A stretch of 8,952 bases of DNA, taken from the IMG/VR virus record IMGVR_UViG_2627854008_000013. One strand, given 5' to 3'. The translations under genes and the position numbers were made by a program. Positions 1 to 1,962 of the stretch are shown piece by piece. Origin of the DNA: a virus. Taxonomy: Duplodnaviria > Heunggongvirae > Uroviricota > Caudoviricetes. The number at the start of each line of letters is the position of its first letter. Positions within the stretch are counted from its first letter, which is position 1. The notes beneath the pieces are model-generated. The model made no database searches. It was given only the letters and a program-made list of their open reading frames with translations, and was not told the origin of the DNA.

Positions 1-1695
1 TCATGCCGCGGCATCCGCGTTGTTCACTTCCACCTTCACACTGGCAATCAGCAGCGTATATGTCGCCGCCTTTGATATGCCTGTCAGTTGCAGTTTGTCC
101 GCCGCCCCTGATGCCGGAGATTTCACCAGTGTGAACGGCGTCCCCCGTTTCTCATCCAGTACCGGCGTCACCTGAATGCTGTTGTTTCCGGCAAACTCAA
201 AATCCAGTGTGTGCCATCCGTTATCAAAGACCCCGAACGTATCCAGCTTCGCATTCGGCTTCTTGTGGTACATCGCGTTCAGGTTCGTCGCATCCGTCTG
301 CAGGAAGAAGGACATCAGCATGTCGTTGCCTTCCTCTGCCAGCGTCACTCCCTCCGGCAGGGACGACAACTGCCAGTAAATGCCCAGGGCAAACCGATTC
401 GGCACCAGTGAACCCGGCAACTTAAACTGTACGCTCACACGTCCCCCCTTCTTCAGTAACTCCACTCCCTGTCCGGCTGCATCATGCTCCAGAAACCAGA
501 TGTGGTTTTCCGGTTTATTCAGTTGCAGGGCCTTACCTCCCGTAGCCCCCGCATCACTGACCACCGCTTCAGCAATGTTTTTGTTAACATTGTCTCCGCT
601 CGCCGGTTTGTGATAATAGCGCCAGCCCTGTGATGCCAGGTCTTCGCCGGACGCCAGCAGACTCATCAGGGTTCGGTTACTGACCGGGGCTTCCGGCTCT
701 CTCTCCGTACCTTCACCGGAAGGTCCGGTGGGCTTCACCGTATCAGGCTGTTTTCCGGTAATGAATTCAGCGGTTCTCCCGGCATGCACAAGAATCGCCG
801 TTGCCAGACGGTCGGAAATAATCCCACGACGTGCCCATGATCCAAAATGCGTTTTACGGTCGGCCGTCGTCCAGGTTTTGGCGTCCGTTCGACCACCGGC
901 TCCGTAATACCCAATATCCGCAACATCCGGATCTTCTGACGGCTCGTTGGTACCCACATTTCGCCCGTTTTCATCCGTCATAAACGGCACAAAGAAGATT
1001 TTTTTTGCGGATTTCGTCTTGTATGCACCATACACCGCATCGTATTGCGAAGAATAAGTCTGCTTCCAGTAGTAGGTCGTGTCGCCACAAATCCAGGGAA
1101 CCGATGACGGAGAGCCCCCGAGACACTGACCTCCGAATTCCGACAGGTCAGAACGATATTTTTCCACCATGGAATCAAACAGCCCCGGCTGAGTGGCGTA
1201 TGCACCCTGTTTCAAATCAAACTCGCCCTGCATCCAGACCACTGCAAGCAGAATATTTTTAGGGTTAGCCTTCAGTGCGGCCTGAGTACGGGTAAGCAGG
1301 TCCTTGTACAGTGGCTTATCTACACCCCAGCGTGCCGAGGTCTCGCTTGCGCCGGTGGATTCGCTGAAGGTACCTTCATCGCCCGCCAAAAATGCAGAAC
1401 CACCACGGCAGCACGGAACCAGAAGAATACCGGCATTCGCCGGAATAAACGGCAACAATTTCTTCGCGATATGTAATCCCTGCCCCACGCATCCATACTG
1501 AGCTGCGCTGGCTTTCGGGTGTGAAAACTTACTCAAATCCTGAACATCATGCAGGCAGTGGTCCGCAGGAATAATGTCATTGTAGTTACAGGACGCACCA
1601 CCCGGCGTGACAGTGCTGCGACGCGCCAGCTGTTTAATACGCGGGTCCGGACGGTCATATGTCTCCGGCAGCGGAAGCCCTTCACCATACGCCAT
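1..1695 (-). CDS. nanS-p: SGNH/SASA-family sialate O-acetylesterase module of a prophage NanS-p-like protein (564 aa from ATG at 1693-1695; stop TGA at 1-3)
   Basis: Long minus-strand ORF with SASA/SGNH-like blocks (WMQGEFD, GG-rich block, D-x-x-x-H near TADRKTHF). It sits downstream of Q and the tRNA cluster, as NanS-p genes do in Stx-type phages. The block-I motif GQSN lies just upstream of the called ATG, in frame (see findings). Family assignment is from memory, not a search. Confidence 0.8.
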   Translation of the reverse strand: MAYGEGLPLPETYDRPDPRIKQLARRSTVTPGGASCNYNDIIPADHCLHDVQDLSKFSHPKASAAQYGCVGQGLHIAKKLLPFIPANAGILLVPCCRGGSAFLAGDEGTFSESTGASETSARWGVDKPLYKDLLTRTQAALKANPKNILLAVVWMQGEFDLKQGAYATQPGLFDSMVEKYRSDLSEFGGQCLGGSPSSVPWICGDTTYYWKQTYSSQYDAVYGAYKTKSAKKIFFVPFMTDENGRNVGTNEPSEDPDVADIGYYGAGGRTDAKTWTTADRKTHFGSWARRGIISDRLATAILVHAGRTAEFITGKQPDTVKPTGPSGEGTEREPEAPVSNRTLMSLLASGEDLASQGWRYYHKPASGDNVNKNIAEAVVSDAGATGGKALQLNKPENHIWFLEHDAAGQGVELLKKGGRVSVQFKLPGSLVPNRFALGIYWQLSSLPEGVTLAEEGNDMLMSFFLQTDATNLNAMYHKKPNAKLDTFGVFDNGWHTLDFEFAGNNSIQVTPVLDEKRGTPFTLVKSPASGAADKLQLTGISKAATYTLLIASVKVEVNNADAAA

Positions 1696-1728
1696 ACCGT
1701 TTGACTGCCCGGCCAGGGCAACAACAAA

Positions 1729-1962
1729 TTAATACTCCGGGTTGCTGGTGGTGCTGATAACTGCGCCTTCTCCATCCGACGGCTTCACCACCACAGGTGT
1801 GGTGACATCACCTTCCGCCGCAATGGCCTGCATCAGGGTATAAGGCGTGATGGCCACCGGACTGCCAAATGGCTGCCACCCCTCCTTCAGTTTTTGTGTC
1901 AGTCGCTCCGCAAGGTCTGACGGCGACGCCGCCCTGACCACGTCATAGTGTTTAAATGCCAT
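1729..1962 (-). CDS. DUF1737-like small protein (77 aa); corresponds to the N-terminal module of NanS-p-type esterases
   Basis: ORF MAFKHYDVVRAASPSDLAERL... with a GGAGG Shine-Dalgarno 4 nt upstream of the ATG (minus-strand CCGGGAGGATTCATG). It is in the same frame as the esterase ORF and separated from it only by TAA at 1729-1731. Confidence 0.7.
   Translation of the reverse strand: MAFKHYDVVRAASPSDLAERLTQKLKEGWQPFGSPVAITPYTLMQAIAAEGDVTTPVVVKPSDGEGAVISTTSNPEY

Follow-up and report, generated by a model that had tools for sequence, protein, structure and literature searches.

The 8,952-nt stretch of Caudoviricetes DNA analysed here (IMG/VR virus record IMGVR_UViG_2627854008_000013, referred to throughout as the window) carries a prophage copy of nanS-p, a 9-O-acetyl-sialate esterase gene, that is interrupted by an in-frame TAA. 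Comparison with intact alleles makes it highly probable that this is an ordinary nanS-p pseudogene, created by a single C>A change (TAC to TAA) that is a young Shigella lesion inside a decaying prophage, and not a case of recoding. In the sequence of events that we propose, the Tyr78 codon TAC would have become TAA nine codons before the nucleophile Ser87, and any product initiated at the internal Met90 would lack strand beta-1, the oxyanion residue Gln86 and Ser87, and so would not hydrolyse the ester. The lesion would have arisen once in a Shigella lineage (records that carry it are named S. boydii or S. dysenteriae), the TAA would then have spread among resident lambdoid prophage copies through homologous recombination, and the allele would now drift as a pseudogene in a defective prophage disrupted by insertion sequences (IS). 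We infer neutral decay over selected loss. The allele is a previously undescribed yet unremarkable pseudogene of a known gene, in a host in which pseudogenes are known to form.

Two open reading frames (ORFs) on the minus strand make up the nanS-p locus. The first encodes 77 aa, begins with an ATG at 1962..1960, spans 1962..1732 and closes with the TAA at 1731..1729. The second encodes 564 aa, begins with an ATG at 1695..1693 and runs to a stop at 3..1. Both lie in one minus-strand frame, and reading through the stop yields 653 aa followed by one terminal stop. Between them, the in-frame codons 1728..1696 (TTT GTT GTT GCC CTG GCC GGG CAG TCA AAC GGT) translate as FVVALAGQSNG, and none of these 11 codons between the stop and Met90 is ATG, GTG or TTG. 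A GGGAGG Shine-Dalgarno sequence sits 5 nt upstream of the Met1 ATG (~1968-1973); none was found upstream of the Met90 ATG. When the read-through protein is searched against Pfam, three domains appear: DUF1737 at residues 3-50 (PF08410, E 7.5e-16, with profile positions 1-53 of 53 covered), SASA at residues 83-274 (E 6.2e-9) and DUF6645 at residues 503-616 (E 1.6e-42). The original prediction, made from the sequence alone, had described two ORFs in one frame separated by 11 sense codons without a start, and all of its statements about the sequence are confirmed. It had also placed the joined length of about 653 aa near a length of about 645 aa for 933W NanS-p, and 645 aa is indeed the length given for AF125520 (PMC10462455).

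The codon that the stop replaces can be read directly from WP_000874454.1, the nearest intact allele in E. coli, whose uninterrupted 1962-nt coding sequence specifies a 653-aa 'SASA family carbohydrate esterase'. The window differs from it at 4 of 1962 positions with 0 gaps from end to end (99.8% nt identity), and one of these mismatches makes the stop. Codon 78 is TAC (Tyr78) in WP_000874454.1 and TAA in the window, a C>A change on the coding strand and thus G>T on the plus strand at window position 1729. In a 141-nt alignment centred on the stop, TAC versus TAA is the sole difference from three E. coli alleles. The 2.4 kb around nanS-p reaches up to 99.0% identity to E. coli chromosomes. Tyr at codon 78 is also kept in locus L019, a diverged nanS-p paralogue, and in the Min27/933W-type NanS-p (aa identity of 82% and 72%, respectively, across the ~190 N-terminal residues that were aligned). 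Min27 stands here for the 933W type, as nanS-p is fragmented in the old annotation of the 933W record Y10775.2. The Tyr extends to chromosomal NanS, where PDB chain 3PT5 reads DYYYVLTVAGQSN. The original prediction had asked which sense codon homologues carry at this position, and the answer is TAC (Tyr) in all intact homologues aligned. The same comparisons support its central claim of one nanS-p gene split by a nonsense codon, with the catalytic GQSN stranded in the gap. A chance juxtaposition of two ORFs was considered and is ruled out by the gap-free 1962-nt alignment to the intact coding sequence.

The position of the stop is expected to be decisive for the esterase domain. The GQSN of the window aligns with the VAGQSN block (Gln18/Ser19) of NanS in 3PT5, in agreement with the original prediction, which had named this motif as block I with the nucleophilic Ser and had noted that a protein starting at 1695 lacks it. 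The intact allele matches 3PT5 over residues 73-391 (E 1.4e-118) and 6YP6, the C-terminal domain of phi24B NanS-p (E 9.5e-61). In NanS, Ser19 and His301 are the catalytic residues, Gln18 and a glycine form the unusual oxyanion hole of the SASA family, and substitution of block I or block III residues in this family abolishes activity (PMC9063846; PMC9487903). The 77-aa product ends nine codons before Ser87 and the 564-aa ORF begins three codons past it; block I is encoded, but outside any translated protein. His372, within THFGSWARRG, aligns with SHFSSAARRG of 3PT5 and is the equivalent of NanS His301. Both this His and the QGE block are still encoded, yet they are useless because the nucleophile is absent. 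The three NanS-p domains are likewise encoded in order and in one frame, but not in one polypeptide, as the TAA at codon 78 splits them. Given the alignment of GQSN with Gln18/Ser19, neither ORF is expected to yield an active esterase, a loss that we infer from the NanS structure and the mutagenesis literature. By descent the locus belongs to NanS-p; it is not a functional member. An alternative start that might rescue the serine was also considered and rejected: with ATG, GTG and TTG lacking, the gap offers just one near-cognate codon, CTG at codon 83, and a protein begun there would still be missing strand beta-1; no Shine-Dalgarno sequence precedes it.

The TAA allele is not confined to a single record. 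An exact-match scan of IMG/VR placed it in five contigs from different IMG genomes, and the IMG/VR contig L008 is identical to window positions 1-8292. The exact 77-aa protein is present on 269 public contigs (292 index blocks), where it goes by DUF1737 domain-containing protein and the source is given as Shigella dysenteriae or S. boydii. For the exact 564-aa protein the count is 123 contigs; there the name is YjhS or sialate O-acetylesterase and the source Shigella boydii. Ten TAA places were read closely in eight separate NCBI assemblies of finished or near-finished chromosomes (CP026807, CP026866, CP026762, CP045784, CP026814 and CP026834, plus a pair of multi-megabase draft contigs). Some of the Shigella genomes have two copies with the TAA. 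These counts bear on the simplest rival explanation, a sequencing or assembly error that conceals a true TAC codon and an intact gene. Such an error would be in keeping with a stop that lies a single base away from the codon of the nearest intact allele. It is ruled out by the recurrence of that stop, which five IMG/VR contigs and eight NCBI assemblies share (ten or more places in the latter, with several finished chromosomes among them), and by the truncated product on 269 contigs; we give it virtually no probability.

The corresponding context in E. coli gives the opposite picture. Two short-query megablast runs over 5,426 complete E. coli genomes found the TAA in 0 of 257 genomes with this context (63-nt query) and in 0 of 240 (57-nt query), across 324-348 places. 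The split is therefore not the normal state of the gene, and homologues in which it is normal, the case that the original prediction had named as contradicting it, were not found. The TAA allele has no match among GTDB species representatives, which is expected since GTDB files Shigella under the E. coli species. Some E. coli copies of the same allele (locus L003 2424-4385, T309.Ta3 and others) are annotated as frameshifted pseudogenes under the name 'DUF6645 domain-containing protein'; nanS-p has therefore been lost independently in E. coli too, through other lesions.

As a fallback, the original prediction had offered a gene that needs stop-codon readthrough. Under programmed readthrough or suppression, the TAA would be decoded usefully often and a full-length, active NanS-p would be made, as might be suggested by the shared frame of the two ORFs, by a downstream ORF that is open in most copies and by the three phage tRNA genes just upstream of nanS-p. 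None of the window tRNAs, Arg(tct), Arg(tcg) and one with a CAT anticodon (Ile2/Met), has an ochre-reading anticodon, however, and the stop context is UAA followed by U. In tetranucleotide stop-signal work, UAA-U is the most efficient E. coli terminator. Since the 141-nt flanks are the same as in TAC alleles, they have gained no stimulatory element. Nor is the stop conserved: none of the intact homologues that were compared has it, and it is likewise absent from all of the complete E. coli genomes that share this context. Missense changes acquired afterwards at conserved positions, and the replacement of His by Asn in a sister copy, both described below, further argue that the frame is no longer protected. 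A suppressor tRNA in cis was tried as a separate candidate, and ARAGORN on the window gave the two Arg tRNAs and the CAT-anticodon tRNA only. With a stop limited to one Shigella lineage, a UAA-U context, no suppressor tRNA in the window and flanks equal to those of intact alleles, the fallback has no support, and we regard useful decoding of the TAA as very improbable.

The history of the pseudogene can be followed among the TAA copies. Across ~840 nt of upstream sequence and the opening ~260 nt of the gene, identity among them is never below 99%. Further 3′, the sequences change over between the window type of the gene and a second paralogue (60-80% nt identity; downstream ORF of 542 aa), at recombination breakpoints that differ among copies (~nt 262, 295, 330 and 560 of the gene). 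The economical reading of these mosaics is a single origin of the TAA, which would then have entered both paralogues through homologous recombination between resident lambdoid prophages; the same lesion would be found in two diverged paralogues because recombination occurred just downstream of the stop. The breakpoints cluster shortly 3′ of the stop (window ~1630-1710; loci L007, L010, L011, L014-L016 and L018), and the mosaics all keep the 5′ end and the TAA. Locus L018 has, in addition, a short converted patch at codons 191-208.

Changes that followed the stop are consistent with a gene released from constraint. In the window sublineage these are R512Q, A587D and D640A, with 0 synonymous changes, and the ancestral R, A and D at 512, 587 and 640 persist in L010, L016 and L018, as they do in intact alleles and in 6YP6, the C-terminal domain from phi24B. 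Among all TAA copies, point changes outside the mosaic patches comprise 5 non-synonymous and 2 synonymous (n=7), a ratio that matches what neutrality predicts, albeit in small numbers. The second paralogue with the identical TAA has also lost the catalytic His (the NanS His301 equivalent), where ACG CAT in E. coli ST648 reads ACA AAT, giving Asn; this His>Asn sequence was found in 0 of 1116 matching E. coli genomes.

Several points weigh against a neutrally decaying pseudogene. The 5:2 count is too small to tell neutrality from weak constraint, and most copies retain an uninterrupted 564-aa ORF, a possible sign of constraint. In so young an allele (divergence of no more than 0.6% once mosaic patches are set aside), an open 564-aa frame is nevertheless expected by chance. 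In one Shigella assembly, locus L009 (4001-5959, PTES01000002.1), three single-base gaps break up the esterase fragment, leaving ORFs of 238, 153 and 145 aa. The gaps may be further decay or may be indel errors of long-read assembly.

A further rival reading is a functional split, in which the stop frees a stand-alone DUF1737 protein that decorates the capsid, and a dead SASA/lectin protein reinitiated at Met90 may bind carbohydrate. The 77-aa ORF has a complete PF08410 domain and a strong Shine-Dalgarno sequence. In phi24B, the DUF1737 domain of gp84 binds capsid hexons (pores) as a hexamer and seems to be separated from the esterase by cleavage past ~residue 54-57; of ~3000 DUF1737 proteins, 2528 have this single domain (bioRxiv 10.64898/2026.04.10.717836). 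The C-terminal domain, for its part, is a lectin-like jelly roll (6YP6; PMC10462455). Each half of the split nevertheless meets an obstacle. The prophage, whose structural genes lie beyond the window, appears to be defective, since IS have inserted, its replication gene is truncated and neighbouring genes are split, and a capsid-decoration role would therefore have no virion to act on; Met90 has no Shine-Dalgarno sequence, and the three derived missense changes at conserved residues gather in the C-terminal domain. The allele is also limited to one host lineage known for gene loss. We consider a functional split quite unlikely.

Loss of the esterase could alternatively have been selected, with inactivation of the prophage sialate O-acetylesterase favoured in Shigella as a pathoadaptive change. 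The convergent loss of anti-virulence genes is known in Shigella, and the TAA is present in two diverged nanS-p copies of one genome, apparently via recombination, one of which also has its catalytic His replaced. Neutral decay combined with recombination among resident prophages, in a host with a small effective population and many IS, gives the same pattern, however, and the TAA copies seen in Shigella would all go back to one origin. Selected loss thus has little probability in our view. Taking both routes together, there is a small chance that the stop is favoured in Shigella, either through pathoadaptive esterase loss or through a freed DUF1737 capsid-binding protein that mimics the proteolytic release reported for phi24B gp84; the spread between paralogues by recombination and the extra His>Asn would then reflect selection.

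The preferred account of an ordinary pseudogene also agrees with the setting of the locus. The window corresponds to the late regulatory part of a lambdoid prophage with its genes on the minus strand (Table 1), and nanS-p occupies its lambdoid late-region location after Q, the tRNAs and the Shiga toxin (stx) slot, where relatives go on with DUF1378, DUF826 and holin. In related Shigella loci, IS3, IS1 and IS110 family insertions lie just downstream, and the methylase or DUF968 genes are split in some strains. Compared with loci L008, L006 and L005, the window is missing ~993 bp beside the IS (L008 8293-9284), and with it the 5′ portion of a phage replication gene of 274 aa. The loss has the look of a deletion that the adjacent IS mediated in this strain alone. 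Because of the IS insertions, the split genes and the IS-adjacent deletion that truncates the replication gene, the prophage that carries the nanS-p pseudogene appears to be decaying and defective. Prophage decay is usual in Shigella.

Two further observations concern the region upstream of nanS-p. Terminator-like hairpins in 1500-2800 number 5, against 1.3 expected from shuffles, and several of them lie in the empty stx slot, the place of stxAB in Stx phages. The tRNA at 2639-2714 is called Met (CAT) by ARAGORN; its homologue is tRNA-Ile in E. coli relatives and ileZ/ileX in Min27/933W (the lysidine-modified Ile2 type).

Table 1 Features of the nanS-p locus and of the surrounding prophage region. 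Positions refer to the window unless another locus is named.
Feature	Position	Strand	Basis or remark
Entire nanS-p locus (probable pseudogene), DUF1737-SASA-DUF6645, 653 codons + stop if codon 78 is read	1..1962	-	Gap-free alignment, Pfam
5′ fragment: complete DUF1737 domain + linker, 77 aa	1729..1962	-	ORF, Pfam
Premature ochre codon TAA, codon 78, Tyr>stop	1729..1731	-	141-nt alignment
11 stranded sense codons, FVVALAGQSNG: strand beta-1 + SGNH/SASA block I	1696..1728	-	Alignment to 3PT5
3′ fragment, 564-aa ORF from internal Met90: remainder of SASA + DUF6645 lectin-like C-terminal domain	1..1695	-	
GQSN motif codons	1699-1710	-	Between stop 1729-1731 and next start 1693-1695
Gln86 codon	1705-1707	-	
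Ser87 (nucleophile) codon	1702-1704	-	
SASA QGE block (WMQGEF)	~1228-1230	-	
Catalytic His372 codon	847-849	-	THFGSWARRG
Derived missense R512Q, C-terminal domain	427..429	-	After TAA; CGG in intact alleles and in L010, L016, L018; Arg in 6YP6
Derived missense A587D	202..204	-	After TAA; Ala in 6YP6
Derived missense D640A	43..45	-	After TAA; Asp in 6YP6
His>Asn codon of second paralogue	L011/L014/L015 5117-5119		L007 has the same gene
Empty stx slot, ~500 nt between tRNA cluster and nanS-p	1963-2464		
Three tRNAs: CAT anticodon, Arg tcg, Arg tct	2465-2714	-	ARAGORN
N6/N4 methylase	2767-3813	-	
Antiterminator Q	4380-4772	-	
Dam methylase, RusA, KilA-N, DUF968, in order after the replication-gene ORF		-	
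IS-adjoining ORF: PerC-like C-terminal part; 5′ part is the truncated phage replication gene	7643-8305	-	
IS3-family transposase (rve domains), window end	8302-8952	-	

For annotation, this means that the public Shigella entries named 'DUF1737 domain-containing protein' and 'sialate O-acetylesterase / YjhS' are, on our reading, two pieces of a single dead gene. Surveys of sialic-acid use or NanS-p diversity should therefore leave the 564-aa entry out of their tally of active esterases. The locus adds one more case of gene loss in Shigella prophage remnants and brings no new mechanism. It may also serve as an example of recombination between resident prophages copying an inactivating mutation between paralogues.

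Among known systems, the locus resembles the nanS-p genes of lambdoid prophages, those of Stx phages included (933W L0105; phi24B gp84, also vb_24B_21; the O104:H4-type WP_000874454.1, which O104:H4 strains also carry). It shares with them the domain order DUF1737-SASA-DUF6645 and the genomic slot, namely Q antiterminator, methylase, tRNA-Ile/Arg/Arg, the stx slot where present, nanS-p and then DUF1378/DUF826/holin. It differs in the TAA at codon 78, in three more missense changes in the C-terminal domain, in an upstream slot without stx and in a host that is Shigella and not Shiga toxin-producing E. coli. Chromosomal NanS (YjhS) of E. coli, represented by 3PT5, has a SASA domain with the same YY-x-V-x-x-AGQSN-x-MAYGEGLPLP segment and catalytic His motif; unlike the window locus, NanS is intact and has neither DUF1737 nor DUF6645, whereas in the window the equivalents of Gln18 and Ser19 lie outside any translatable ORF. 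The 77-aa product resembles the single-domain DUF1737 proteins in that its PF08410 domain is complete and has a ribosome-binding site to itself, but it comes from a truncated fusion gene in an apparently defective prophage and retains a 26-residue leftover linker. A parallel in kind is with the pseudogenes of reductive evolution and the 'grounded' defective prophages of Shigella, a general phenomenon of gene decay that has been reviewed (PMC6379469). The lineage-fixed nonsense mutation, the IS3/IS1/IS110 flanks, the IS-adjacent deletion and the split neighbours are all alike, there is no difference of principle, and the sole particular of the nanS-p allele is the presence of the same lesion in two diverged paralogues.

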